DNA of 64,000 bases from Bacillota bacterium (GCA_041179705.1 JBEGSW010000056.1:1796-65795), one strand, 5' to 3'. Counted from the first letter of the stretch, positions 5,498 to 62,656 are shown. Notes: a model not told the origin generated them from the letters alone. Numbers and translations are program-made.

Positions 5498-6305
5498 AGC
5501 GATTTTTGAATCCTATTTCGTGATGACAGGTTGTGAAATCTTTCATTCTGATTGCACATGTATCCAGGTGAAACTATCTCCAATTGCAGATCGGACAATC
5601 GCTAATCGCCCTTACTATTGGGCATTTGTCGATAACATGCATCAAGAACCTGAACCTTTATCATATACCTTTTGGTTTGCACCTCAACAAACAGATCTTG
5701 CATTGCCACTTACCCAAACAATCTCTGAATTAATTACCATCGGAAACGATAAATTAAATGTAATTATGCAAGAATTACACACACAAGGCAGCTATACCAT
5801 GCTTTTTGAAAAAAGTGCGACACCACGCAACATTGATTCCTATGATTCTTGGCTTAATGTTAACTATATGCTCCACTTCCAAACCTACTCAAATCGGAAC
5901 GACGTTCACTCTATCGGTATATCCTTAACAACTGGTGAAATTGTCGAAGACTTTATGGAACAAATTGCGCACATGGAATTTTCATCCACAATCGCAACTG
6001 CCATGATGATAAAACCTGTTCTAAGCATGGAAAGCGCACAGCAACTTATTAAATCTCATATTCATAATCAGCTTACTTCTGCCGATCATGCTTGGGCGAT
6101 ACGTGCCTCTGAACTGGAGATAAATGAACATAATCGACTAAAGAGTTACTATATGGAACGTAATGAACCTGAGCTTTTGACCAAACGGACAACAGAAATA
6201 AGCAAGATTTATGCCCCAACGCTTTCGGTCGAAATAATTAATTGTGGGATTTTTCATTTTTTAAACCATTTCCGCCATAAGAATTCGAAAGCATTAGGGA
6301 GTTGA
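5478..6305 (+). CDS. YqhG-family protein (uncharacterised partner of YqhH-type helicases)
   Basis: 275-aa ORF overlapping the helicase stop by 20 nt. The assignment rests on recalled Bacillus yqhG-yqhH adjacency. I recognise no catalytic motif. Confidence 0.6.
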   Translation: MKQEHIKAIFESYFVMTGCEIFHSDCTCIQVKLSPIADRTIANRPYYWAFVDNMHQEPEPLSYTFWFAPQQTDLALPLTQTISELITIGNDKLNVIMQELHTQGSYTMLFEKSATPRNIDSYDSWLNVNYMLHFQTYSNRNDVHSIGISLTTGEIVEDFMEQIAHMEFSSTIATAMMIKPVLSMESAQQLIKSHIHNQLTSADHAWAIRASELEINEHNRLKSYYMERNEPELLTKRTTEISKIYAPTLSVEIINCGIFHFLNHFRHKNSKALGS

Positions 6306-6433
6306 CCAAACCATTCTTGACGTAAATTTGTTTGTTCTTTGGTTAACCTTATCGTTCTCGTTTTTTCTTTACCTAGCACATATCTAACAACCTTTTCCGT
6401 CCATTCTTGCCAAATATCCGTTTTGTCCGCCAT
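6254..6433 (-). CDS. YqzE-like small protein (59 aa)
   Basis: Below the ORF-track size cutoff. Reads MADKTDIWQEWTEKVVRYVLGKEKTRTIRLTKEQTNLRQEWFGQLPNAFEFLWRKWFKK. The basic middle and the WFGxLPxA motif match my memory of the YqzE family, which lies near yqhG in B. subtilis. AAGGGGAG lies 13 nt upstream, which is long spacing. Overlaps the yqhG 3' end convergently by 52 nt. Confidence 0.45.
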   Translation of the reverse strand: MADKTDIWQEWTEKVVRYVLGKEKTRTIRLTKEQTNLRQEWFGQLPNAFEFLWRKWFKK

Positions 6434-6497
6434 GAGTGAAAGTCAGCTCCCCTTAGTTGTAATAGCTTTAGTCTTCTCGTTTTCATCCAAATCATGC

Positions 6498-6549
6498 AAA
6501 AAACCTCCTGCCGTGTTAAGATAATGTCCAACACGTTAGGAGGTTTTTT
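6498..6549. terminator. Bidirectional terminator-like hairpin
   Basis: AAAAAACCTCCTGCCGTGT (6498-6516) pairs with ACACGTTAGGAGGTTTTTT (6531-6549): CCTCCT/AGGAGG plus CGTGT/ACACG with a 2-nt internal mismatch. A-run on the left and T-run on the right. Confidence 0.55.
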
Positions 6550-6551
6550 GT

Positions 6552-6677
6552 ATGTTATCTGGATTAATTGCTGGGGGGATCATAATGTCCCTTATTTTCA
6601 TCGGTGGCACTGTACTTTATATCAATAAAGCTTATTCCAAGAAATGGGAAGAAGAGGAGTCCGATTCTGCTAAATAA
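6552..6677 (+). CDS. Possible 41-aa membrane micro-protein
   Basis: MLSGLIAGGIIMSLIFIGGTVLYINKAYSKKWEEEESDSAK: one hydrophobic helix plus a charged tail. Its GGAGG RBS (6539-6543) lies inside the right arm of the 6498-6549 hairpin, which lowers confidence that it is expressed. Confidence 0.35.
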   Translation: MLSGLIAGGIIMSLIFIGGTVLYINKAYSKKWEEEESDSAK

Positions 6678-6885
6678 GGGAATCGGGTAACTCTCTCGGT
6701 TGATCATCTGCCTGGAAATGATATGTCTTTGCAACTTTAACTACTTTTCGATTCTGCTTTCGAACTAATACATCTGATTCATTCCATGCGATTACAATCC
6801 CTCGAATATCATTGTCGGGATTCGCATCTCGAACAACTCGCACTTTAACCCCATCTCGACGCCATTCATCTAGTTGATTATCCAA
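6670..6885 (-). CDS. Hypothetical small protein (71 aa as listed)
   Basis: ORF-track entry with a TTG start overlapping the stop of the upstream gene. An in-frame GTG 13 codons in is an alternative start. No motif recognised. Confidence 0.45.
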   Translation of the reverse strand: MDNQLDEWRRDGVKVRVVRDANPDNDIRGIVIAWNESDVLVRKQNRKVVKVAKTYHFQADDQPRELPDSLI

Positions 6886-7195
6886 CGTGCTTCACCGAAT
6901 CATTCCAGAAGTCTAATACTTGACCCGACATTACACGACTTTGGATATAGGCAACTTGGTGTTCGGAGAAATATGTTTCCCATGCGAATGAAAGGTCTTC
7001 ACACAGTTGAACAAGTGTGAGCAATTCTGACCAAGCAACATAGCGCTTGTACCAGAAAAATTGCGGATGTTCGATCATATAAGGATAGAGATCATCAAAT
7101 TCAGTGTGCTTACAATCCAAAGCGCGTTCGAAATGATTTTTCGCATGTTCCAACTTCGCAATCAAAAAAGATTCTGTCATTTGCTCGAAACCCAT
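6878..7195 (-). CDS. Hypothetical protein (105 aa)
   Basis: ATG at 7195 with AAAGGAGAG upstream. Coding-like composition. No family confidently recognised. Confidence 0.5.
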   Translation of the reverse strand: MGFEQMTESFLIAKLEHAKNHFERALDCKHTEFDDLYPYMIEHPQFFWYKRYVAWSELLTLVQLCEDLSFAWETYFSEHQVAYIQSRVMSGQVLDFWNDSVKHVG

Positions 7196-7274
7196 CGTAT
7201 CGCCAACTCTCCTTTCAATTAAAGCCCATGTAATAAGTATATGACAATTGCACCGTAATGAGGAAGTGGGTAAA

Positions 7275-7850
7275 TTATTCCACGAATGTGATTTCGCCGT
7301 CCGATAAAGATTTGATTTTTACTAATGTCTCCACATTCAAGCCCATATTACGCAAACGATTGGCACCATCTTGGAAACTCTTTTCGATCACAATACCGAA
7401 ACCTACAATTGTGGCACCTGTCTGCTCCATGATGCGAACTAAACCTCGAGCACCATCACCATTTGCAATGATGTCGTCGATTAATAACACCCGATCCGTC
7501 TCGTCGATTAACGATTTCGACAATATTAAGTCAGTTACAATCCCCTTAGTAAAGGAAGGGACCCGTTCCGTCCACACATCCGTATCTGTTGTGAGGGTTC
7601 GCTTACGTCGAGCGAAAGTAAATGGAATTGCTAATTCTAATGCTGCACCCATCGCAATTGGAATCCCCGAAGATTCAATTGTAACGATTTTCGTTATTCC
7701 ACTATCACGAAAACGGTCTGCAAGTAACTTACCCGCCTCCAAAGCAAATTGTGGATCAACTTGATGATTCAATAATGTGTCTAGTTTCAATACTTGATCA
7801 GAAATAACGATACCTTCCTCAAGCACTCTATTCTTTAAAAAGTTTATCAT
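7275..7850 (-). CDS. xpt: Xanthine phosphoribosyltransferase
   Basis: Collinear with remembered B. subtilis Xpt: LNHQVDP, ITKIVTIESSGI, PRPP-binding loop VLLIDDIIANG, GIVIEKSFQ. Confidence 0.92.
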   Translation of the reverse strand: MINFLKNRVLEEGIVISDQVLKLDTLLNHQVDPQFALEAGKLLADRFRDSGITKIVTIESSGIPIAMGAALELAIPFTFARRKRTLTTDTDVWTERVPSFTKGIVTDLILSKSLIDETDRVLLIDDIIANGDGARGLVRIMEQTGATIVGFGIVIEKSFQDGANRLRNMGLNVETLVKIKSLSDGEITFVE

Positions 7851-8015
7851 CCCAATCCCTCCAGTTCATAACGATTTCGCCTATTTTTAAAAGTTAACTT
7901 AACACAGTATATCAAATCGTTGCAAGAGTTTTTCCCCGCCAAAATAGGGATTTATCGGAATAGCTCTGTTTTGGTTTTCATATGTTGGTGTGTAAAACCA
8001 AAAGGAGTGCATCTT

Positions 8016-9059
8016 GTGTCCATTCATCGATTGAAAGCAATCCAAATCGGTTTAACTATTATCGGAACAATCGTTGGTGCTGGATTTGCAAGCGGGCAAG
8101 AAATTTTGATTTTCTTCTCGCGATTTGGCAACTGGGGCACACTTGGTATATGTATTGCAGTCAGTCTGATTATTTGGATAAGTACCCTAACGATGGTGTT
8201 TGCGCAAACCCATTCCATCACTTCGCCTCAACACTTTTATTCGCTATTGTTTGGTAGAACCCTGAACAAATTTGCCACAGCCTTGATGCTTGCTAGCCTA
8301 TTCGCAGTTAGTTGTGTCATGTTAGCAGGTGCTGGAACAGCTTTACAAAGCGTGTTTCCCATCCCTTATTGGACAGCAGCGCTAATTTCTGTTGCATTTA
8401 TTATTATAATCCTAAGCAAGCAATTAAATGGGCTATATTGGATTAATGGCATTGTTGTACCGATATTAATTGCGTTTGTATTTGTACTATTCTATTTCAG
8501 TTCATCGTACCGAGCATTTCCAGCTTGGCCAGAAACGATTGTTTCCATTCCAATATGGAAATCATTCTTTTATGCGATCAGTTATGTCTCATTCAATGTA
8601 ACGATGGCTCTAACCGTCCTGCTCTCCATAGGTGCACATACCCGTTCAAAATCGACAATCATCACGGGTGGTTGGATTGGCGGACTCGGTATCGGACTAT
8701 TGTTAATGTGCAGCCATTTTATCTTACTCAACAAAGGGGCGCACATTGGCGAACACGAACTTCCACTTGGCTTCCTGGCACAAAAACTATTCGCATGGAC
8801 AGGAAGCTTATACTTACTGTTAATTTATTTCGAAATTATGACCACATTAACAGCAAATGCGTTTGGATTGAGCCTACATCTGACCCAATTCAAACGCATT
8901 TCGCGTAATTCATTTATGATATTAACATTAATTTTATGTCTTCTCATCGGCCAACTTGGTTTCGCACGACTGTTGGATACGATTTATCCAATTGTCGGAA
9001 TCATGGGATTCGCCTGGATTATTGCGCTATTGTATTCCATTAAGAAGCATCGAATGTAA
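8016..9059 (+). CDS. YkvI-family membrane protein
   Basis: IGTIVGAGFASGQEILIFF N-terminal signature and multiple TM segments. Start moved to the GTG at 8016 (AAAGGAG 8 nt upstream) from the ORF-track TTG at 7920. Confidence 0.7.
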   Translation: MSIHRLKAIQIGLTIIGTIVGAGFASGQEILIFFSRFGNWGTLGICIAVSLIIWISTLTMVFAQTHSITSPQHFYSLLFGRTLNKFATALMLASLFAVSCVMLAGAGTALQSVFPIPYWTAALISVAFIIIILSKQLNGLYWINGIVVPILIAFVFVLFYFSSSYRAFPAWPETIVSIPIWKSFFYAISYVSFNVTMALTVLLSIGAHTRSKSTIITGGWIGGLGIGLLLMCSHFILLNKGAHIGEHELPLGFLAQKLFAWTGSLYLLLIYFEIMTTLTANAFGLSLHLTQFKRISRNSFMILTLILCLLIGQLGFARLLDTIYPIVGIMGFAWIIALLYSIKKHRM

Positions 9060-10170
9060 CATATATTTTTTTTAATTCACTAATCACTCGCGTTAATGAA
9101 TACAATTTCTTGGCGCGTTCATAGGCTGAGCGCGCTAATTCATAGCGATAATCCGGATCATTAAACATTTGTTCCAACGCATCAGCTAGTGCATCAGCAT
9201 CTCCAACTGGTACAAGTAGACCATTAGAACCATGTTCAATTTGTTCTGAGATTCCCCCTACATCGGTACCAACTAGCGATAAATGACATAACGCAGCTTC
9301 GGCAAATACACTTCCAAATGCTTCAGCACGAGATGGGAGAACAAAAATATCGAAGAAAGGCATAAATTCTTCAGGATGTAGCATATACCCATAAAAAATT
9401 GTGTCATTATATACATCCTGATCCATTGCCAATTGTTCTAATTCAGGTCGAATCGGACCGTCACCAATTAAATGCAGCACAAAGTTGTGTCCACGACGGC
9501 GCAGCTTCCCACATGCAACAAGTAATGTATCAATCCCCTTAGCTGGAACCAGACGGCAAAGTGAAACGAGTTGCGGAACGGCATTTTCATGTGGAATTGG
9601 TTTAAACCGTTTCGCATCAAATCCATTCGGTATTACAAATACTTGATTTGCATCTAGCATGTGATCAGACAAGTACGATTTGAAAGCTTGAGAAACCGTG
9701 ATAATTCCATCCATCTTGACTTCTAGTTCTCTATATAAGCTTGTCAAAAAACGCACTTCTTCGCCATCTTCAGGAACTTTTCCATTTAACACGAGTTCAT
9801 TCTCATAACTGGAGTGAATTGTAATAATTACAGGTGTATTTGGAAACACATGCTTCATTACCAACGCAGTAATCGGATGGTGTGCATGAATTAAATCATA
9901 TTTATTATCCTTGATTCGAAGCAACGTCCACCATAAGTAATCTTTAAAAGTCTGCACATACTTATCGATGATTGGATTGCCTTCAAACGTTTTCCAATCG
10001 AACGTCTCAAATTCAAATAATGTTTGCCCTTTACTCCGTATGCGTTTCGGCAAAGAAAAAAGTTCCATGTCCCATCCAAGTTTAATGAATTTTTCTTGAA
10101 TATAGGGAACCATGGAGGAGACACCACCAGGTTGTTCCGGCGGGAAAAACAATGCTTGTAATACTTTCAT
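9040..10170 (-). CDS. Glycosyltransferase, GT4 (GT-B fold) family
   Basis: MKVLQALFFPPEQPGGVSS N-terminus and the C-terminal EAFGSVFAEAALCHLSLVGTDVGG (E-x7-E region) typical of GT4. Start chosen at the ATG at 10170 (GAGG upstream); 10197 is also possible. Convergent 20-nt overlap with the ykvI-like gene. Confidence 0.78.
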   Translation of the reverse strand: MKVLQALFFPPEQPGGVSSMVPYIQEKFIKLGWDMELFSLPKRIRSKGQTLFEFETFDWKTFEGNPIIDKYVQTFKDYLWWTLLRIKDNKYDLIHAHHPITALVMKHVFPNTPVIITIHSSYENELVLNGKVPEDGEEVRFLTSLYRELEVKMDGIITVSQAFKSYLSDHMLDANQVFVIPNGFDAKRFKPIPHENAVPQLVSLCRLVPAKGIDTLLVACGKLRRRGHNFVLHLIGDGPIRPELEQLAMDQDVYNDTIFYGYMLHPEEFMPFFDIFVLPSRAEAFGSVFAEAALCHLSLVGTDVGGISEQIEHGSNGLLVPVGDADALADALEQMFNDPDYRYELARSAYERAKKLYSLTRVISELKKIYVTFDAS

Positions 10171-21738: not shown

Positions 21739-22528
21739 AATTATAACTAATCGCTTGACTGCCAATTTGCTCCCATGCTTCAATAAAATTCGTTTTTGAA
21801 ACCTTTATATTTTTCCCTGACGTTAGCGGGTCATTAAAATAGACGTATTGAGCATCAAATCCGGTTAAGAGCACACAGTGTTCATAATAAGTTACTTTAA
21901 TTTTTCCTGTCGGTGTATGCCAGGTGCGCCAATGTGAATCAGCCAAATATTTGTATGTGGAATTAGTAATTACCCAAACCGGCTTCCCTTTAGCTAATTG
22001 CTTTATGACATTATCAAATGATTCCCCAGACAAATCAAGAACCCTGCCAGGCAAATAAGTCTCTGCAAGTGCTGCAACCGGCTTATGATATACTCCTAAA
22101 CCGGATTTTGCGAATGTGTAAATGTCCCCGACAAATCCATCATTCGGATTTCCAAAATACGTAATGCCGTTTACTCTCGAGAATCGCGTAGGGTCCTTTT
22201 TTATTTGTTTGGCCAAAATCATCTTATCTGCTTGTATGCCAGCGTGTCTTAATAACATGGCTAGACTTGTCACTTCACAACCCCGGTCTAATTCAGGCAA
22301 CTGCGAAAGCACAGGTACATCAATCAGGATTTCAGTGACCGGCTTTTTTGCTATTTTTTCATCTGTAATGACGTCGCCTTTTTGAACTGGATGGCTAGTA
22401 AATATCAATTTATATAGATAAGACTCTTTATCAAAAAGACTATATAGACTAATCATTAAATTAAATAATACTACCACTAAAACTGCAGCTACCCATTTTT
22501 GTCTAATCAAGTTAACCCACCGATTCAT
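21737..22528 (-). CDS. C39-like cysteine peptidase domain protein (YvpB-like), membrane-anchored
   Basis: N-terminal TM helix, then GCEVTSLAMLL (catalytic Cys context) and HCVLLTGFD (His), as in the Peptidase_C39_2/YvpB family. Confidence 0.65.
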   Translation of the reverse strand: MNRWVNLIRQKWVAAVLVVVLFNLMISLYSLFDKESYLYKLIFTSHPVQKGDVITDEKIAKKPVTEILIDVPVLSQLPELDRGCEVTSLAMLLRHAGIQADKMILAKQIKKDPTRFSRVNGITYFGNPNDGFVGDIYTFAKSGLGVYHKPVAALAETYLPGRVLDLSGESFDNVIKQLAKGKPVWVITNSTYKYLADSHWRTWHTPTGKIKVTYYEHCVLLTGFDAQYVYFNDPLTSGKNIKVSKTNFIEAWEQIGSQAISYN

Positions 22529-23409
22529 TCAAAATAGTCTAAACAAAATTTTCTAAATGTATCTGCAAGGATAGAAAGCTTTGCATTCTTCCTTTGTACA
22601 ATACCAATCGTACGCGACACACGTTCCGATGCAATTCTAATTTTTACTGGCATTAAATCTGATTGACCCGTTAAGGCCATTTCAGGAAGTAAGCTAATGC
22701 CCATACCCGCGGCAACAAGCCCACGAATTGTATCCGTCTCTTCGCCCTCAAAAGCAATTAGCGGTTCGAATCCCGCCTTCACACATGCATTCCAGACAAT
22801 ATTTCTTAGCGAATATCCCTCACTGAACAATACAAATGGCTCGTCTTTTAATTCCGTCAAGCAAATCGATTCTTTTTTCACAAAAGCATGATTCGCTGGA
22901 ACCACAACAAATAGCTCTTCTGTTAGTAATACATCACCAGAAACATGACTATCCTTCATTGGACAAGGAGAGGTTAAGGCTAAATCAACTTCACCTTGTG
23001 ATACATAATTTAGTAATGTCTCATAATTACCTTGTTTAAACTTGAAGCGAACATGAGGATAGCGATTACGAAACTCGGAAACGAGTTTAGGTACCAAATG
23101 AATACCTAGCGTATGTGGAAATCCAATCCGTATTTCGCCATGGTCCGGACTTGTCAATTCATGAATTTCTGTAACTGCTCGATCAAGATCCGCAAGCACC
23201 GGTTCTACACGTTTCAAGAATAGCTTTCCAGCAGGTGTTAAATGCAAATTCCGACCATGTTGTACAAATAACTGGATCCCAAGTTCATCTTCTAACTGAT
23301 GAATTTGACGACTGACCGCTGATTGGGCAATATGCAATTCTTCCGCCGCCTGTGTCACATGTTCCTTCCGAGCCACCTTAACAAAATACTGTAATTGCCG
23401 CAGTTCCAT
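22525..23409 (-). CDS. LysR-family transcriptional regulator
   Basis: MELRQLQYFVKVARKEHVTQAAEELHIAQSAVSRQIHQLEDELG is a winged-HTH, followed by a LysR substrate-binding domain. Overlaps the downstream gene by 4 nt. Confidence 0.9.
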   Translation of the reverse strand: MELRQLQYFVKVARKEHVTQAAEELHIAQSAVSRQIHQLEDELGIQLFVQHGRNLHLTPAGKLFLKRVEPVLADLDRAVTEIHELTSPDHGEIRIGFPHTLGIHLVPKLVSEFRNRYPHVRFKFKQGNYETLLNYVSQGEVDLALTSPCPMKDSHVSGDVLLTEELFVVVPANHAFVKKESICLTELKDEPFVLFSEGYSLRNIVWNACVKAGFEPLIAFEGEETDTIRGLVAAGMGISLLPEMALTGQSDLMPVKIRIASERVSRTIGIVQRKNAKLSILADTFRKFCLDYFE

Positions 23410-55965: not shown

Positions 55966-56074
55966 CTTATTCTCCTTTTCATCGTAAAAACACATAGAGG
56001 AGCCTTGAATGACAGGCTCCTCCATGCGTTCCCGATATGATTTGTCTTGAATTTACACGTTGTAAATGTGATTG

Positions 56075-56614
56075 TCAAGTTACCTTTTCGGGGCCTAATT
56101 CAGATGTTAATAATTCTAAATATCTACCTGTTTCATAATAAAGCTCTTCATCTGTTAATGTTCTAACACCTGAAACCACAAAGGGTGTTTGATAGTTCAT
56201 CTTCGTCAAATTCGCCATAGCTTGGAAGGGCAATAGTAAGTCATTTATGGGATATTTATTATAACCCTCTGGTGAATAAGCATCTTTAGGTCCACCCGTT
56301 GAAACTGCGAGTATGAGTGGCTTATCTTTCAATGCATTGCCCCCATTGCCAAACGCCCATCCATGAGTCATTACCGCATCAATCCATTTCTTTAATAACG
56401 AAGGCGCACTATACCAATAAAACGGAAATTGTAGGACAATTCGATCTGCTTGTTCAAGCCAATGTTGTTCTTCAAAAATATCGATTTTTTCATCTGGATA
56501 TTTGTCGTATAAATTATACGTCTGAATATTATTATGCTTTATTGCATTAATGAAATGTCGATTTATTCTAGACTGAGATAAGTGTGGATGTGCAACAATG
56601 ACGAGCGTATTCAT
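56075..56614 (-). CDS. Flavodoxin-like NAD(P)H oxidoreductase (YwrO / KefG-like)
   Basis: LVIVAHPHLSQSRIN, RIVLQFPFYWYSAPSLLKKWID and GWAFG are collinear with remembered YwrO. Confidence 0.8.
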   Translation of the reverse strand: MNTLVIVAHPHLSQSRINRHFINAIKHNNIQTYNLYDKYPDEKIDIFEEQHWLEQADRIVLQFPFYWYSAPSLLKKWIDAVMTHGWAFGNGGNALKDKPLILAVSTGGPKDAYSPEGYNKYPINDLLLPFQAMANLTKMNYQTPFVVSGVRTLTDEELYYETGRYLELLTSELGPEKVT

Positions 56615-56666
56615 GATCAACCTCTCCATTCCTTAAATAAATATAAAGCCCAACTTAAAGAAGCTA

Positions 56667-56717
56667 TATTCATGTTAATATGCATCTCAAGTACAATAAA
56701 TGACATTAACATGAATT
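56667..56717. repeat. 12-bp perfect inverted repeat upstream of the ywrO-like gene
   Basis: ATTCATGTTAAT (56669-56680) and ATTAACATGAAT (56705-56716) are exact reverse complements separated by 24 nt. Confidence 0.7.
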
Positions 56718-56728
56718 TCATCGTATAA

Positions 56729-56777
56729 GAAAAAACGCTTGAATGAAAGAGCATCTAAACTCGTTCATTCAAGCGTT
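56729..56777 (-). terminator. Rho-independent terminator closing the cryptochrome/photolyase operon
   Basis: Minus strand: AACGCTTGAATGAA, 16-nt loop, TTCATTCAAGCGTT, then TTTTTT. Perfect 14-bp stem. Confidence 0.85.
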
Positions 56778-56792
56778 CTTATTGTTCAAAAA

Positions 56793-56870
56793 TTATTTAC
56801 CGCTTTTAGCATGAGAACCATCACATTGACCTTGCGCATTTTGAGTTTTACCACAAGCACATTGACCCAT
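56793..56870 (-). CDS. 25-aa CDGSH-like Cys/His micro-protein
   Basis: Not in the ORF track. MGQCACGKTQNAQGQCDGSHAKSGK, with GAGGGGG 8 nt upstream of the ATG at 56870. It lies 30 nt after the photolyase-family stop and 15 nt before the terminator. It contains C-x-C-G-x-T...C-D-G-S-H, close to the CDGSH 2Fe-2S signature. Confidence 0.45.
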   Translation of the reverse strand: MGQCACGKTQNAQGQCDGSHAKSGK

Positions 56871-56900
56871 TTGGAGAACCCCCTCGCTTGATAAAAATAA

Positions 56901-58424
56901 CTAACTATCTTTATTATACTGCAAGGATTGTTCCAGGGGAAGTCCTTTTATTCCATCCAGTTCAAATTCCATCTGAACAACACTCGCTTTCTTTCGGCTA
57001 CCATGTCGAGCGAGCAGTTTTTTGGAAATTGTCCGTGTCTCACTGTTTTTCTTTATCCCCCATAAAATATCCCTTGCAACACGATTTGCTTGCTCAACAT
57101 CAATGATTGGCTGAATATAAGTAGAAGGTCCATCCCATTCTGGAATGTATTTCCGTATAAATCGCTCGTCAGGGTCATGATCCTCTGCTTGTTTATAGGG
57201 ATTATAGATACGAATCGTGTTAAATCCTGTCACACCTGCTTGCATTTGGACTTGACTATAATGAATGCCTGGTTCGTAATCAATAAACAAGCGTGCTAAA
57301 TGTTCAGCCGGTTTTCGCCAATCTAAGAGTAATGTATTACAAACGAATGAAACGAGAATCGCCCGCATTCGAAAATTGACCCATCCCGTTTGATGAAGAG
57401 CTCGCATCCCTGCATCGATTAATGGAACTCCTGTTGTTCCACTCGCCCATTTTTGAAACCACTCTTCATTCCAATCAACTCTCACTTTGTCAAAAGCAGG
57501 ATTTAAAGTTCGAATAGCAATATCTGGTTGATCCTCAATTCGCTGAATGAAATGACAATGCCAATGACAACGTGATAAATAGGCCAACATTGATTTTTGC
57601 GCCCAACGTTCTACGCCATTATCGAGTACACTTTCACTTTGCTGGACGACGTATCTTAATGAAATGTTTCCCCAGGCTAAATAAGGGGACAGTCTACTAC
57701 AATTTTTTTCAGCTAGAAATGGCGATGATATACTCTTTAAATAGTCAGCGTATGTGCCTGACAAGAATTTTTTTAATTGACGATGTGCCTCGCGCTCACC
57801 ACCCTTTTGCCCTAAATTTGCATCGACCCAATCCCCATTTATGTCCAAATTAGCAAATGATTGCATCGATGTGCTTAAGCGTGTTGGAATTTTATCGCCC
57901 ATCACGAATCTTTCTGGCGGTTGAAGGACATCCGCTTCAATATATCTTCGCCAGAGGTGGTTAAATTGTTGTCTGGATCGAAGGCGACGTGTGACACCGA
58001 AATGTTGATATTCTACAAAAGATAGACCTCGCAGCCTCATCCATCGATGGACTTTCTTATCCCTTTCAAATGTCCAAGGTGTTCCATATTCTTCATGGGC
58101 AAGAAGTCGGAACGGACCATATTGTTGAAAAATACTTTCCAAAACTGGTTCCATCTCACTAACTGCATATAGAATAAATCCACCACGTTTGCGAACATCA
58201 TGTTCTAACGAACGAAGACTTTCAACAACAAATGCCAAATGTCTTTTAGACATGTCTTTCGCTTGCCAAATTGAAGGCTCCAGAATATAAATAATTAGTG
58301 TAGGACCAGTTCGCGTCGCCTCAACGATAGGGGCATGATCATAAATGCGAATGTCTCTTTTTAACCAAACGACCTGTAACAATGATTCACCCCCAGTGCT
58401 TGACGTATTCTCCTTTGGGATCAT
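56901..58424 (-). CDS. Cryptochrome/photolyase-family flavoprotein, divergent subfamily
   Basis: N-terminal VVWLKRDIRIYDHAP (photolyase alpha/beta domain). FAD-binding domain TGVPLIDAGMRALHQTGWVNFRMRAILVSF...LFIDYEPGIHYSQVQMQAG, where the canonical DGD..NNGGWQW segment is replaced. An alternative TTG start at 58382 follows GGGGGTGA. Confidence 0.8.
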   Translation of the reverse strand: MIPKENTSSTGGESLLQVVWLKRDIRIYDHAPIVEATRTGPTLIIYILEPSIWQAKDMSKRHLAFVVESLRSLEHDVRKRGGFILYAVSEMEPVLESIFQQYGPFRLLAHEEYGTPWTFERDKKVHRWMRLRGLSFVEYQHFGVTRRLRSRQQFNHLWRRYIEADVLQPPERFVMGDKIPTRLSTSMQSFANLDINGDWVDANLGQKGGEREAHRQLKKFLSGTYADYLKSISSPFLAEKNCSRLSPYLAWGNISLRYVVQQSESVLDNGVERWAQKSMLAYLSRCHWHCHFIQRIEDQPDIAIRTLNPAFDKVRVDWNEEWFQKWASGTTGVPLIDAGMRALHQTGWVNFRMRAILVSFVCNTLLLDWRKPAEHLARLFIDYEPGIHYSQVQMQAGVTGFNTIRIYNPYKQAEDHDPDERFIRKYIPEWDGPSTYIQPIIDVEQANRVARDILWGIKKNSETRTISKKLLARHGSRKKASVVQMEFELDGIKGLPLEQSLQYNKDS

Positions 58425-59709
58425 ATTGCTTCGCCTGTTTTGTTACATCAAACCATCGATCCTGCCGAGCATCGTTCCCGATTCCAGCTAAATACTGCCA
58501 ATTGCCGTAATTGCTCGCAGGATCGTAGTCAATTAGCTGTGATTCATAATATTCCGCACCCAGTAACCAATCGATTTTCCAAGTCTGTGTCAAAAAGCTC
58601 GCGGCATTTTGTCTGGCGCGATTCGTTGTAAAACCTGTCTCAATTAGTTCATGCATGGAAGCATCGACAAGTGGTGCGTTTGTTCTTCCCTCTAACCATC
58701 TATGCATCTGCTCTTCGTTCTCTTTCCAATCCTTCTTCCGCTGTTGGATGCCCTGTTGGAAAAATAATCGATCGCCATATTTGAAATGCATCAAAATAAA
58801 AAATTCACGCCAAAGCAATTCGAAAAACAACCAATACGTCGAGTCATTTCTTAACCGTTCAATTTCGTAATGTTTGATTTGTGTGTAGACTTGTCGAGGA
58901 GATAGACAACCTTGTGCCAACCATGGCGATAATCTCGAAGAATCATTTGGTCTTAGCATGCCATTCCGTGTTTCTTTATAAGTAGCAATTGCATCTGTTC
59001 CAAATAAATAGTCCTCTAATCGCGCTTGCCCAGTAGTCGAACCCCCAATAAAGTCATACGTCCTTTTCTTAGAAAGGATCGGCTTGTTGAGTTTCAACAT
59101 TTCCCAACTAGGAAATTGAACCCACTCGTCTTTTGGACAGGCATGCCATACCTCTTTTTGATTCGGGCTAAGGACTTTTGGTATTGAAAGCGATTGACAT
59201 ACAATGAATTGCTTCTCAACTTTTTGGCGGAAAGTTGTAAATAAATCAGGAATCGAATCGATTGGATTAAACCATTCAAGTTTATATAGTCCCTTTGTCC
59301 AGTAAGAGTGCCACTTCAAATCGGGGAACTTCTCTTTCGCTAGAGCAATGACTGTTTGCTCTTCAGATCCCAATTCAATCGAATAGTGAATATTTGTTGG
59401 GAACAAGCCAATTGGCATCAAAGAAGAAATTAAATTTGAGATAACATCATCAGTTGTTCCAAATCGGACAAAAAGTGGAATGTTTAATGCTGCTAATTGA
59501 TTTTCTAAATCTTTAACGCTCTCCATAATAAATTGAGCACGCGGTGCACCTGTCTTCGGAAATCCATAATGATTTGTTGTTGTGTATTGATACTTTTCAA
59601 ACACATACAATGCAACAACAGGCATACCACTTAGGCATGCCCTTGTTAACGGTTCATGATCTTCGATTCTCAAATCATTACGAAAAAGCACAATTGAGCA
59701 AGCTTTCAT
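58387..59709 (-). CDS. Cryptochrome DASH
   Basis: VLFRNDLRIEDHEPL, FPKTGAPRAQFIMESVKDLENQL, STYWLFFELLWREFF and IDYDPASNYGNWQYLAGIGNDARQDRWF are Cry-DASH hallmarks. The ATG at 59709 forms an ATGA overlap with the upstream stop. Confidence 0.85.
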   Translation of the reverse strand: MKACSIVLFRNDLRIEDHEPLTRACLSGMPVVALYVFEKYQYTTTNHYGFPKTGAPRAQFIMESVKDLENQLAALNIPLFVRFGTTDDVISNLISSLMPIGLFPTNIHYSIELGSEEQTVIALAKEKFPDLKWHSYWTKGLYKLEWFNPIDSIPDLFTTFRQKVEKQFIVCQSLSIPKVLSPNQKEVWHACPKDEWVQFPSWEMLKLNKPILSKKRTYDFIGGSTTGQARLEDYLFGTDAIATYKETRNGMLRPNDSSRLSPWLAQGCLSPRQVYTQIKHYEIERLRNDSTYWLFFELLWREFFILMHFKYGDRLFFQQGIQQRKKDWKENEEQMHRWLEGRTNAPLVDASMHELIETGFTTNRARQNAASFLTQTWKIDWLLGAEYYESQLIDYDPASNYGNWQYLAGIGNDARQDRWFDVTKQAKQYDPKGEYVKHWG

Positions 59710-59945
59710 TTGTACTTGCCCCAGAACTTTATAAGCACACGAACAAGCCATGGTAACGGCCAACCAGCTGTGTCGGCTTGCTTTGCAAATTGGATAAATG
59801 CCGTCCCTACACGACGTTGTTTTTTTATTTCTTCCTCATTTCCACGAATCGTAATCCGATATCCATCTTCCAAGCCTTCCATCTTTAGTTCAAATGGCTC
59901 CAGTTTTTCTTCAAATGTGCGTTCCACCTTAACTTCCTCTTTCAT
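59706..59945 (-). CDS. Orphan 79-aa protein, translationally coupled on both sides
   Basis: MKEEVKVERTFEEKLEPFELKMEGLEDGYRITIRGNEEEIKKQRRVGTAFIQFAKQADTAGWPLPWLVRVLIKFWGKYK. AAAGGTGGA lies 8 nt upstream. There are ATGA overlaps at 59942-59945 and 59706-59709. Confidence 0.55.
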   Translation of the reverse strand: MKEEVKVERTFEEKLEPFELKMEGLEDGYRITIRGNEEEIKKQRRVGTAFIQFAKQADTAGWPLPWLVRVLIKFWGKYK

Positions 59946-61594
59946 GATTCGTGTCCACCTTTCATCCATTTATTTAGAATCGAATTAATTCTTACATGTA
60001 AATAACCAACATAAATACTTGGGATCCACAAGACGTATTCAGTCAACTCACCTACGTATACGAAGTATGCCAAGGCCCCAAATGACACAAGTCCAAAGAC
60101 TTGTTGTTGCTTCATATATTTAATGCGATAAAGTATCTTTTCTTTTCTTAGTCTTTCCGTTTCCCTGTTGGCTTTGTTTGTGAGATACAATTGCACTTGA
60201 TTTGGAAGGTCAATCCAGGATCGGACTGATTGAATGGCAGACACTGGCATCCATCCACTCAATTTCTTTAGCCATTGTCCAATCTGATCCACCTGTATTT
60301 CATCTGTTATTTTTAGGTCTGGTAAAATCTTTTTCCCTAAATCTAAATAATCAATATCTGGATTTAAATGTGCAACAATCCCGACCAACATCCCCATTGC
60401 CCGTCCAAAAAAAGCAAATTCGGCAGGCATTTGAATGGGTTGTTGATTCACGAAATAGCGAAACTGTGCCAGCGTTGTCTGGACCATTTGTTCATTCCAA
60501 TCATCGGTGCGATGTTCCAAGAAGAAATCCAACAATTCATCAAGCGCCTGTTGTAACTGTGGAATATCAGCGCCTTCTCGTATGAAGCCCAACTCTTGAA
60601 GCGCTGTTGTCATGCCAGACTGATTGCGAATAATGATCGATTGAATGAATCGAATCATCGCATCTCTTACTTCGTTTCGAATTTGCCCAATCATGCCGAA
60701 ATCAAGAAAGACAATTGTCCCATCTGCCTGAATTTGAATATTTCCAGCATGGGGATCAGCATGAAACCGTTCGCCATTTCGGATTTGCCAGATGAAACTT
60801 CGAACGAGGCGATTAATGACGTCAGCATCATCAATCTGATTTTTTTTGCGAAAGCCATCATCTGTAATCGGAGCAGCATCGATCCACTGCATAATCAAAA
60901 CCTTATTTGTGGAGATTTCCGAGTAGTATATAGGAACTTTAATATTGAACAAAGATTCGAGCGGATGAAATGCTTTTGCATAGACCATCTCTTGCCGAAA
61001 ATCGAGTTCTTGGGTAATCGTCTTCTCAACTTCTCGATATAACCTTTTCCAATCGATCCAATTTGATGTGCGTTTGTACCAGCGTGCAAGTGTTATTACT
61101 ATCCGAATGGCTCGTAAATCTGCTCGAATTAGTTTAGGAATTGTAGGGCGTTGCACTTTGACTGCAACTTCTTGTCCATCCGCTAACTGCCCTTTGTAAA
61201 CGACCGCAATCGAAGCAGACGCAATCGCTTCAGGATGAACTTGAATCGCATCCTTAACCGCTGAACCAAGTTCCTTTCGGATGATTTGTTCTGCCTTCTT
61301 CCAAGGAATTGGTTTCGCCTGGTCTGTTAAACTTTCCAACGGTTTAGTGAAGATTTCCGGTAGAATGTCGACACGTGTGCTTAAAAATTGACCGACTTTA
61401 ATCGTCATACCTTGCAAGCGTGAAGCCATACGTTTAAATCGGATGGCTTGCGCTTCGACCAATTTCTCCCAAGCTTCTTTCTCTTGCTCATTCGTCGGAA
61501 ATCTGCGAGCGGATTGAAAATACCAAATTTCGATAAAAGCACGAATCGAATAGCTAACGATATACAGTGTTCTAATCCAAGAAATCCCCCACAT
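59942..61594 (-). CDS. ABC1/UbiB (AarF) atypical kinase-family protein with C-terminal TM segments
   Basis: KVGQFLSTRVDILPEIF, VAVKVQRP and FHADPHAGN are ABC1-family motifs. ATG at 61594 lies 17 nt after the upstream stop with AGGTGGTGA as RBS (the ORF-track start at 61705 overlaps the upstream gene). Confidence 0.85.
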   Translation of the reverse strand: MWGISWIRTLYIVSYSIRAFIEIWYFQSARRFPTNEQEKEAWEKLVEAQAIRFKRMASRLQGMTIKVGQFLSTRVDILPEIFTKPLESLTDQAKPIPWKKAEQIIRKELGSAVKDAIQVHPEAIASASIAVVYKGQLADGQEVAVKVQRPTIPKLIRADLRAIRIVITLARWYKRTSNWIDWKRLYREVEKTITQELDFRQEMVYAKAFHPLESLFNIKVPIYYSEISTNKVLIMQWIDAAPITDDGFRKKNQIDDADVINRLVRSFIWQIRNGERFHADPHAGNIQIQADGTIVFLDFGMIGQIRNEVRDAMIRFIQSIIIRNQSGMTTALQELGFIREGADIPQLQQALDELLDFFLEHRTDDWNEQMVQTTLAQFRYFVNQQPIQMPAEFAFFGRAMGMLVGIVAHLNPDIDYLDLGKKILPDLKITDEIQVDQIGQWLKKLSGWMPVSAIQSVRSWIDLPNQVQLYLTNKANRETERLRKEKILYRIKYMKQQQVFGLVSFGALAYFVYVGELTEYVLWIPSIYVGYLHVRINSILNKWMKGGHES

Positions 61595-61611
61595 TGTGGA
61601 GTTCACCACCT

Positions 61612-61869
61612 CTAATTCTTTTGAGTAGGACAACGAAATCTCGTTATTTTCGGATTGCGTGTAATCGCGTGCTTCGTTTTCCTTCCCGTCATTCGCTTTC
61701 TCCACATCTTGAACGATGAACTTTTCATCTCTTGTCGCATTACTTTAATTATTTCTCCATGTGTTAAGCCAAACTGAAGTGATATTTCATCGAATGGGGT
61801 CCTGTCTTCCCATCCCATTTGAACGATACGGTCAAGCTGTGCTTGCGATAAATGATTCCAATTTTTCAA
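61612..61869 (-). CDS. DUF2805 / TIGR03643-like small protein
   Basis: LSQAQLDRIVQMGWEDRTPFDEISLQFGLTHGEIIKVMRQEMKSSSFKMWRKRMTGRKTKH matches my memory of the WEDRTPF...WRKR family. The start is uncertain: TTG at 61869 after GGGGTGG, or the ORF-track TTG at 61899. Confidence 0.6.
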   Translation of the reverse strand: MKNWNHLSQAQLDRIVQMGWEDRTPFDEISLQFGLTHGEIIKVMRQEMKSSSFKMWRKRMTGRKTKHAITRNPKITRFRCPTQKN

Positions 61870-61931
61870 ATTAACCACCCCAAACAAATTCTTAGCCAAA
61901 TTATTAAAATATTTTTATCTTAATAAATCCA

Positions 61932-61967
61932 ATTATACAATGTTTGTATAATATTTGTACAATGTTT
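61932..61967. promoter_or_regulatory. Dyad plus direct-repeat element in the divergent promoter region
   Basis: 9-bp-arm palindrome ATTATACAA-TGT-TTGTATAAT (61932-61952). Direct repeat TACAATGTTT at 61936-61945 and 61958-61967 (22-bp register). Minus-strand -10 TATAAT (61937-61932) with TTGTAC (61962-61957) 19 nt upstream. Plus-strand TATAAT at 61947-61952 and TGCTATAAT at 61982-61990. Confidence 0.5.
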
Positions 61968-62023
61968 CTCACATTATTATTTGCTATAATACTTTTATAA
62001 ACGGTAATTGAAGGAGGATGGGT

Positions 62024-62656
62024 ATGAAGAGACTTCTATCTATCATTTTCACAGTCGCCATTTTAAGCTCATCCTTATTTATATACACAAATGATGCGCA
62101 AGCTATGGCTGGTAGAAAATTCCCTGTGAAGGTAATGAAATGCGTAGACGGGGACACTGCCTTTTTCACTAAAGTGGGGATTACAAGATTCTTATATATT
62201 GATACGCCGGAATCAACTAATGAAATTGAACCTTATGGAGTAGAAGCAGCTGCGTATACGTGCAGTCTTCTTTCCAATGCAAAGCGGATTGAATTACAAT
62301 TCGATGGCCCATTGAAAGACAAGTATGATCGCACACTTGCCTGGGTGTGGGTCGACGGTGTGCTGTTGCAGAGAAATTTAATTACCATGGGTTATGTAGA
62401 GAAGTTTTATGACTTTGGAGATTATTCCTATGAAAAAGAATTAATGAAGCTCCAGATGCAAGCACAACAAAAAAAAGTCGGCATTTGGTCATCCTTTACG
62501 GCTCCTACACCAGCGCCAAGTTTGAAGTCATCGCCATTGAAATTCAAGAACTGTTCGGAACTTCGTAGAGTTTATCCTCGTGGTGTTCCAAGTGATCATC
62601 CGTCATATGAGAAGTACTTAGACCGTGATCAAGATAATTTTGCGTGCGAGCGTTAA
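62024..62656 (+). CDS. Secreted thermonuclease (SNase family) with C-terminal Excalibur domain
   Basis: Signal peptide ending NDAQA, SNase core (RFLYIDTPE, DKYDRTLAWVW), and C-terminal FKNCSELRRVYPRGV...DRDQDNFACE (Excalibur). ATG at 62024, 7 nt after AAGGAGG. Confidence 0.85.
   Translation: MKRLLSIIFTVAILSSSLFIYTNDAQAMAGRKFPVKVMKCVDGDTAFFTKVGITRFLYIDTPESTNEIEPYGVEAAAYTCSLLSNAKRIELQFDGPLKDKYDRTLAWVWVDGVLLQRNLITMGYVEKFYDFGDYSYEKELMKLQMQAQQKKVGIWSSFTAPTPAPSLKSSPLKFKNCSELRRVYPRGVPSDHPSYEKYLDRDQDNFACER

Follow-up and report, generated by a model that had tools for sequence, protein, structure and literature searches.

Two separately conserved gene modules are probably joined in a putative light-controlled photoprotection operon of uncultured freshwater Bacillota

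Why should genes for two photolyase-family flavoproteins, a protein of the ABC1/UbiB kinase family, a DUF2805 protein and two very small products follow one another with almost no intergenic space? The question is raised by a 64,000-nt stretch of DNA (JBEGSW010000056.1:1796-65795 of assembly GCA_041179705.1, a metagenome-assembled genome labelled Bacillota bacterium; hereafter the window), in which six consecutive open reading frames (ORFs) occupy the minus strand between 61961 and 56731. An earlier note on this DNA had taken them for one integrated, stoichiometric module. We give a probability of roughly 0.6 to a different reading: a photoprotection operon of uncultured freshwater Bacillota in which two separately conserved modules are joined under one promoter. 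Module A would be a set for DNA photorepair and photoreception, found clustered in many phyla and made up of the DUF2805 protein, a Cry-DASH and a second member of the cryptochrome/photolyase family (CPF), here called CPF2. Module B would be specific to Bacillota and would consist of a membrane-anchored ABC1/UbiB-family kinase-like ATPase and a translationally coupled partner of ~80 aa. A light-sensitive repressor of the LitR/CarH family would bind three tandem repeats over the -35 and -10 elements, so that the operon would be shut off in darkness and derepressed once light is present. The linkage of the genes would then reflect co-regulation rather than a physical complex of flavoproteins and kinase. 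The two CPFs would handle photodamage to DNA and the ABC1 pair, in a role that we infer, photodamage to membrane prenylquinones; the small partner would most likely work at the membrane, either together with ABC1 or upon it.

ORF calling and direct reading of the sequence agree on the layout of the unit, all of it on the minus strand. Transcription would start from a promoter with a putative operator (61932-61961) and pass through the DUF2805/TIGR03643 gene (61612-61869, 85 aa), the ABC1 gene (59942-61594, 550 aa), a 79-aa ORF (59706-59945), the Cry-DASH gene (58387-59709, 440 aa), the CPF2 gene (56901-58382) and a 25-aa ORF (56793-56870) to an intrinsic terminator (56731-56780). The junctions measure, in this order, 17, -4, -4, 4 and 30 nt. 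The first gap contains AGGTGGTG, the 79-aa ORF shares an ATGA overlap with each of its neighbours (59942-59945 with ABC1, 59706-59709 with Cry-DASH), and the last gap contains GAGGGGG. The terminator hairpin has arms of 21 nt with 90% complementarity and a folding energy of -27.9 kcal/mol (z = -7.46), and is followed by a U-run. One strand, overlaps or short gaps, one promoter-like site and one terminator are what a single operon would display, and a predicted transcription unit of six translationally coupled genes is plausible. The ORFs, junctions, promoter dyad and terminator had been placed accurately in the earlier note, as the ORF calls, the sequence and the hairpin fold confirm; of its alternatives for the Cry-DASH/CPF2 junction (58382-58424), overlap or near-abutment, the second is the likelier. 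The likeliest CPF2 start is TTG 58382, 4 nt after the Cry-DASH stop, which yields the N-terminus MLQVVW common to the homologues; ATG 58424 is probably unused, and the two genes would nearly abut without overlapping. A terminator-like hairpin with a 6-bp stem at 61601-61587, overlapping the ABC1 start, was dismissed as a chance match, and an Rfam scan of 56000-62300 returned nothing significant. Five of the six genes are under purifying selection, with ratios of nonsynonymous to synonymous divergence (dN/dS) of 0.006-0.11; synonymous divergence (dS) is ~0.8 against the nearer of two related lineages (locus L012) and saturated against the more distant one (L008).

Related loci, cited by their L numbers, separate the operon into its two parts. 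Besides the window clade (L001-L006), we recovered one lineage at ~85% protein identity (L012-L015) and another at ~60-80% (L008-L011). The string ABC1, 79-aa protein, Cry-DASH and CPF2 recurs with the same tight junctions in both. The flanking genes of L008-L011 differ from those of the window, and the L008 version of the operon is missing DUF2805 and the micro-ORF. The two modules appear to be fused only within this narrow clade, in three lineages and two genomic contexts; the co-occurrence of the four genes, for which the earlier note had proposed a survey, is present in these lineages and was not seen in the other loci. Outside the clade, the surroundings of DUF2805 were surveyed in 80 metagenome loci, 40 of which have at least 2 kb on both sides. 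Among these well-flanked loci a CPF gene lies within 300 nt of DUF2805 in 16 and within 2 kb in 22, bearing out the earlier statement that TIGR03643-type proteins tend to sit beside photolyase-family genes. An ABC1 gene is found at 2/80 of the DUF2805 loci, where it is 25% identical, lies on the opposite strand and is several kb distant; none of the 80 has the 79-aa protein. Homologues of CPF2 stand alone (L020, L021), after a DUF2256 zinc-ribbon gene (L022) or with other CPFs (the contig of homologue P0018, which carries a CPF, a DPRP and CPF2); no ABC1 gene accompanies any of these four.

One version of the photorepair cluster lies in the metagenome locus L029 (566-7285), where coupled genes encode an SDR protein, a class I cyclobutane pyrimidine dimer (CPD) photolyase, a Cry-DASH of 433 aa, a DPRP of the FeS-BCP type, a CPF2-family protein and a DUF2805 protein. 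This pattern of four CPF classes in a row recurs in L031, L032, L064 and L104, and in Salisediminibacterium (L023) the DUF2805 gene is divergent from a Cry-DASH gene. Judged by such neighbourhoods, the trio of DUF2805, Cry-DASH and CPF2 is a widespread and recurrent cluster that crosses phyla. Clusters of the L029 type resemble the window operon in that Cry-DASH, CPF2-family and DUF2805 genes are co-located and translationally coupled. They differ in the position of DUF2805, which is last there and first in the window, in their extra photolyase classes, and in having no ABC1 gene, 79-aa protein or micro-ORF.

Module B is recognizable by its own associations. The ABC1 product belongs to PF03109 (207 bits against a cutoff of 22.9) and carries the motifs KVGQ66, ASASIA125, VAVKVQ143, QELDF195, HADPHAGN278 and DFG298, and with them the KxGQ, Ala-rich loop, catalytic Lys, HxDxHxGN and DFG elements that characterize the family, along with a C-terminal hydrophobic window at about residues 499-540; its start, MWGISW, corresponds to MWGLGI in L008, and its dN/dS is 0.10. 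It shares the full motif set and the C-terminal hydrophobic anchor with UbiB, Coq8 and the plant ABC1K proteins. It differs from them in scoring below the UbiB cutoffs (247.1 against 487.55 bits for TIGR01982, 158.3 against 667 for NF003404), in belonging to a menaquinone-type Gram-positive lineage and in lying under a putative light operator. On these scores the product is a family member and not a UbiB orthologue.

The 79-aa protein is acidic in its N-terminal half, and its C-terminus is amphipathic and rich in Trp and Lys. It has no match in Pfam or NCBIfam, and its AlphaFold2 (AF2) model, with three strands and two helices at a mean predicted local distance difference test (pLDDT) of 61, found no meaningful fold match in a structure search. 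The family is rare: 7 close homologues were found, and 4 genuine distant ones among 1.8 billion representative proteins. Two other candidates were rejected, P0011 (797 aa) as a spurious translation of a 53-aa tandem repeat and P0013 (3160 aa) for a match limited to 17 residues. A scan of the genome collection with the family alignment matched a single species-level genome, L007, and the taxonomic breadth of the family therefore rests on metagenome contigs. Across eight lineages, and without exception among the loci recovered, the gene comes immediately after ABC1, in many cases with an overlap or no gap between the two, and in five of the eight (L007 and L016-L019, at 35-71% identity) the pair has no CPF gene nearby. 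What follows the small gene there is a flavin oxidoreductase gene (L007), rhaM (L016), a Dabb gene (L017), infC-rpmI-rplT (L018) or dnaE (L019). Selection on the protein is strong: its dN/dS is 0.077, and its identity to the L008 copies is 81%, against 61% for ABC1. Since it always follows ABC1 and is strongly constrained, it would be an ABC1-associated protein rather than a cryptochrome accessory, and we read it as a conserved partner of ABC1. It had been described as an orphan; that it falls into no known family stands, and the picture otherwise has to be corrected, as this is a genuine conserved gene that belongs with the kinase and not with the cryptochromes. We know of no description of a dedicated ~80-aa protein that always follows ABC1. 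In the most distant family member, P0012 (L019 6001-6267), an N-terminal insert is rich in Cys (TESCCGSDCSCNCN) and the last residues are CCK, a sign that some members may bind metal or be lipidated.

The best promoter-like site of the region is TGTACA-18-TATAAT at 61961-61932, with TGTACA as the -35 and TATAAT as the -10 element. Its coding-strand sequence, ACATTGTACAA ATATTATACAA ACATTGTATAA, consists of three tandem 11-bp units whose cores TGTACA, TATACA and TGTATA (T[GA]TA[CT]A) keep an 11-bp phase from -35 to -10 (61934-61961). The same DNA also forms a perfect 9-nt inverted repeat at 61932-61952, a 9-3-9 palindrome ATTATACAA-N3-TTGTATAAT. The three-box pattern occurs once in the 64 kb, where 0.03 occurrences were expected by chance. 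The two-box pattern TRTAYA-N5-TRTAYA is matched in the window only at this promoter, by two overlapping instances (0.11 expected), and in the 104 fetched loci (~1 Mb) it sits, with a single exception, at the promoters of these operons. The boxes are kept upstream of the operon in L012, and in L008, where the DUF2805 gene is absent, they directly precede ABC1. They recur in L007 as two copies of TGTATAATGTTTGTATAA before the genes for ABC1, a 78-aa small protein and a flavin oxidoreductase, where the units are direct and not inverted repeats (TTATACAA-N3-TTATACAC). Since L007 has no CPF gene at this place, the boxes there tie the ABC1 pair itself to the presumed regulator.

Operators of CarH consist of three or four tandem 11-bp repeats of the form nnnnTnnACAn overlapping the -35 or -10 element (PMC9304148). 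LitR proteins of Pseudomonas have the consensus T(G/A)TACA...TGTA(C/T)A, and their regulon includes phrB and cryB (PMC9758184). By the definition in the former paper, at least two 11-bp repeats with a TnnACA core and a pseudo-repeat over -35/-10, the window site has the composition of an operator. The likeness to the known regulons (CarH of Thermus and Bacillus megaterium, PplR/PmlR of Pseudomonas putida and P. mendocina) extends to the T(G/A)TACA-type boxes over sigma-70-type -35 and -10 elements, to the 11-bp tandem arrangement of CarH sites, and to photolyase and cryptochrome genes as targets, phrB and cryB being such targets of PplR/PmlR. The window unit differs in that it encodes a novel small protein and a kinase of the ABC1 family, both missing from the LitR targets listed in the cited work. 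The classic carotenoid-gene targets are absent from it. The fit to LitR/CarH operators is good yet circumstantial, and it leads us to predict light-derepressed co-expression in place of a stoichiometric complex.

Proteins of the UbiB, Coq8 and ABC1K type help to maintain prenylquinone homeostasis and, in plastids, to tolerate photo-oxidative stress. Among membrane lipids, menaquinone stands out by its much greater sensitivity to near-UV light (PMC7916761). Taken together, the photolability of menaquinone and the quinone role of the UbiB family would make a light-induced ABC1 module physiologically sensible in sunlit freshwater Bacillota.

Several observations weigh against a light-controlled operon of this kind, and some of them favour a different regulator. 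No gene for a LitR/CarH protein (a MerR domain with a B12-binding domain) was found in the window by a regular-expression screen and Pfam scans of 20 ORFs; the search returned a single regulator, a LysR gene at 22525-23409. The flanks of the related loci, including the annotation of L001, hold no LitR/CarH gene either. The boxes are absent from the more distant ABC1 and small-protein loci L018 and L019, and their 11-bp spacing departs from the N12 of Pseudomonas LitR sites. The near-perfect palindrome that they form is typical of the sites of dimeric repressors, and another dimeric regulator could bind it. On the protein side, the sub-cutoff UbiB score counts against a quinone role, and contact between the 79-aa protein and ABC1 is putative. 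The operon as a transcription unit and its induction by light are predictions. One may then suppose that the operon is real and that its repeats bind another regulator, either a redox or oxidative-stress repressor or the DUF2805 protein itself, the structural model of which weakly resembles small helix-turn-helix (HTH) DNA binders, and that the signal is not light. Such a regulator is possible, and we think it rather unlikely: the boxes agree with published CarH/LitR sites in their core hexamers and 11-bp phasing, LitR is known to control photolyase and cryptochrome genes (PMC9758184), the L007 boxes are direct rather than inverted, and L007 and L008 keep the boxes with no adjacent DUF2805 gene.

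The other two explanations concern the genes themselves. According to the integrated module proposed in the earlier note, the six products form one stoichiometric unit in which the flavoproteins are physically joined to the kinase and the tiny proteins, and translational coupling sets their ratios. The ATGA overlaps and the near-abutment at three junctions, conserved in L008 and L012, speak for such a unit; coupling as tight is, however, as common where the products of an operon form no complex. The parts moreover live apart: ABC1 with its small protein in five lineages without CPFs, CPF2 alone or with other CPFs, 78 of the 80 DUF2805 loci without ABC1, and the L008 operon without DUF2805 and the micro-ORF. 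Parts so scattered outside a narrow clade are what the note itself had named as counting against its module, and we regard a stoichiometric unit as improbable. At the opposite extreme, the ABC1 gene and the 79-aa gene may be a passenger unrelated to light, inserted by chance between DUF2805 and Cry-DASH and not yet lost. Consistent with this, only a narrow uncultured clade shows the fusion, and ABC1 is otherwise absent from CPF neighbourhoods. The genes have nevertheless stayed linked while synonymous sites became saturated and the genomic context changed, and operator-like boxes precede ABC1 and the 78-aa gene in L007, which is devoid of CPF genes; a chance passenger accords poorly with these observations and has little to recommend it.

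Under the preferred reading of two modules under one promoter, a further and more tentative step can be taken, which we put forward as a conjecture more apt to fail than to hold: ABC1 and its ~80-aa partner would be an unrecognized two-component module of Bacillota, switched on by a LitR/CarH photoreceptor in this clade and in L007 to replace or protect photolabile menaquinone. If so, it would be the first link of a UbiB-family protein to a light-sensing regulon in non-phototrophic Gram-positive bacteria, and the small protein the first obligate small subunit of a bacterial UbiB-family protein. The UbiB/Coq8/ABC1K family is ancient and of medical and agricultural relevance, and its biochemical role is debated. 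The locus offers three handles on that problem: a small partner, a predicted light-controlled promoter and an association with enzymes of DNA photorepair. Together they suggest a physiological setting in the damage that sunlight does to membrane quinones. The individual families, light-controlled photolyase operons and clusters of DUF2805 with CPFs are already known; new are the module of ABC1 and small protein, the incorporation of this module into the CPF operon of a single clade, and the shared LitR/CarH-like operator. The earlier note knew of no description of such a unit, and no paper linking UbiB/ABC1 proteins to cryptochromes turned up in the literature that was searched.

Searches with profile hidden Markov models uphold the family assignments made in the earlier note for both CPFs, ABC1 and DUF2805/TIGR03643. 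The Cry-DASH product scores 481.2 bits with TIGR02765 (cutoff 317.05) over profile positions 3-427 of 431 and contains both the DNA_photolyase and the FAD_binding_7 domains of Pfam. Its best matches in the PDB are 6kii, 1np7 and 2j4d, with E-values of 1e-114 to 1e-99. We assign the protein to Cry-DASH on this basis; repair of CPDs in single-stranded DNA and binding of flavin adenine dinucleotide (FAD) and methenyltetrahydrofolate are its predicted activities. A C-terminal truncation, suggested by the length of 440 aa against ~490 aa in 1np7 and 6kii and by Pfam coverage of 3-149 of 203 positions, was considered and rejected: the 433-aa Cry-DASH of L029 shows the same coverage, and TIGR02765 is matched to 427/431.

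CPF2 is the more divergent of the two flavoproteins. It matches FAD_binding_7 with 177 bits and DNA_photolyase with 61 bits, and no NCBIfam model above its cutoff (135/506 bits for NF007955, 147/885 for TIGR03556, 107/604 for TIGR02766), which places it outside the class I CPD photolyases, the 8-hydroxydeazaflavin photolyases and the plant cryptochromes. With class I CPD photolyases (2e0i, 1iqr, 1owl), to which its best PDB match belongs (just 2e-37), it shares the two-domain architecture and many residues of the FAD pocket. It differs from them in E-values of just 1e-37 to 1e-28, in substituted key residues and in a basic tail with a QLSLF-like motif. Arg stands in place of the substrate-binding Glu, His in place of the N5-proximal Asn, and Val and Met in place of the proximal Trp of the electron-transfer chain and the lesion-stacking Trp. 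The protein bears the signatures SRCHWHCHF and DYEPGIH and a basic KHGSRK tail that ends in QMEFEL. DYEPGIH, with His at the class I Asn position, is present in all 120 best homologues (P0014-P0133) and HWHCH in 64 of them. Homologues are present in many Bacillaceae, in Gammaproteobacteria and in Planctomycetota, with Halobacillus, Alkalicoccus, Metabacillus, Jeotgalibacillus, Salisediminibacterium, Marinobacter and Algiphilus among the genera, so that the unit's presence in a Bacillales-type genome, at first held to be unexpected, is in this respect no surprise. From these sequence features, CPF2 is a member of a widespread, uncharacterized subfamily of photolyase/cryptochrome proteins of ~500 aa with an altered flavin pocket.

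The tail of the CPF2 subfamily runs from KHGSRK to QLSLF, QLSFDL or QLEFEF, and resembles the beta-clamp-binding motif of bacteria. QL[SD]LF lies within the last 30 aa in 12/120 homologues and a relaxed form in 35/120 (shuffled tails give expectations of ~0.005 and 0.2, respectively), and neither is found in the other 56,905 residues. A photolyase-like enzyme tethered to the clamp would be unusual. Close to its 3' end, the window copy of the gene contains an additional G (CTGGATGG, where L012 has CTGATGG; 56871-56960 against L012 10990-11100), which adds 16 codons and makes the last residues of the protein a lineage-specific read-through. The DNA beneath this read-through is highly conserved despite the change in reading, and a TATAAT lies ~40 nt before the micro-ORF. 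In Marinobacter caseinilyticus (L022 7861-9524) the 47-aa DUF2256 zinc-ribbon gene overlaps the start of the CPF2 homologue by 4 nt, a second instance of a tiny Cys-rich ORF coupled to this subfamily; its sequence is unrelated to that of the 25-aa ORF.

The first gene of the operon encodes a protein that reaches 115.2 bits with the Pfam DUF2805 model and 114.3 bits with TIGR03643, for which the cutoff is 66.55. Its TTG start at 61869, preceded by GGGGTGG, agrees with the N-termini of homologues. The product is small, very basic and helical, and its AF2 model (pLDDT 81) has four to five helices. The best Foldseek matches of the model are HTH domains of KorA, LsrR and sigma region 4, all with E > 0.5, and the protein may possibly be an HTH-like binder of nucleic acids. 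Its dN/dS against L012 is 0.006, the protein being 98.8% identical where the other operon proteins are ~85%, and it keeps 55-60% identity to copies from Bacteroidota and cyanobacteria. By these comparisons the conservation is extreme for an 85-aa protein of uncharacterized function. Public gene calls for L001-L006 begin ABC1 at an upstream GTG (587 aa; window 61594-61899), which swallows the DUF2805 gene and omits it; the annotations of L012-L015 call both genes. L013 (1680-3272 and 3505-4725) is an ENA contig of low coverage in which two ORFs make up ABC1 and the Cry-DASH ORF is shortened, probably through assembly error and not through decay.

The 25-aa ORF at the end of the operon, MGQCACGKTQNAQGQCDGSHAKSGK, contains three Cys and one His and has GAGGGGG 8 nt before its ATG. 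It had been labelled CDGSH-like, a label that the profile does not sustain: the zf-CDGSH match (PF09360) reaches 14.3 bits (E = 0.05), well short of the 29.5 required, and with the L012 variant there is no match at all. The pattern C-x-C...C-D-G-S-H with its three Cys and one His recalls the CDGSH domain of the mitoNEET type. The rest of the domain is missing, however, as the match covers the last 17 of 48 profile positions (32-48), and the Cys pair stands one residue further from CDGSH than in the canonical spacing. In L012 and L013, 22/25 residues are identical. The dS of the ORF is 0.15, against ~0.8 in the neighbouring genes, with a dN/dS of 0.35 and 93% identical DNA, and the non-coding DNA on its flanks is conserved as well, including the upstream TATAAT. 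The low dS and the conserved flanks imply that constraint acts at least partly on the nucleotide sequence of the region. The protein collection has no entry with exactly this sequence.

The micro-ORF may encode a metal-binding peptide, or may be an RNA element or a small separate transcript, and its coding status is uncertain. That it is not a protein gene, and that the region is instead a conserved 3' RNA element or a small independent transcript ending at the terminator, has nearly an even chance in our estimate, given the constraint on its DNA, its failure at the zf-CDGSH cutoff and its absence from the L008 lineage. A peptide is favoured by the strong GAGGGGG ahead of the ATG and by the fact that 5 nucleotide changes in L012 and L013 have left the three Cys and the His untouched, and the region has no match in Rfam.

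The neighbours of the operon extend two of its themes. Directly after the terminator lies a gene for a KefF/KefG-like NAD(P)H:quinone oxidoreductase of the Flavodoxin_2 family (56075-56629, minus strand), which also adjoins the operon in the L012 lineage; it suits the quinone theme and is probably transcribed separately. Two copies of TGTATAATGTTTGTA(T/G)A, the box type of the window, lie ahead of the L007 locus (6150-9342, from a metagenome-assembled genome labelled Paenibacillus alvei). The 355-aa flavin oxidoreductase encoded there has only N-terminal similarity to enzymes of the protoporphyrinogen oxidase, CrtD and HpnE type. On the other side of the window operon, and divergent from it, a gene for a secreted-type nuclease with SNase and Excalibur domains (62018-62656, plus strand) shares with it an intergenic region of 148 nt. 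A plus-strand promoter-like site in this region overlaps the same palindromic boxes, and the putative operator could therefore control transcription in both directions.

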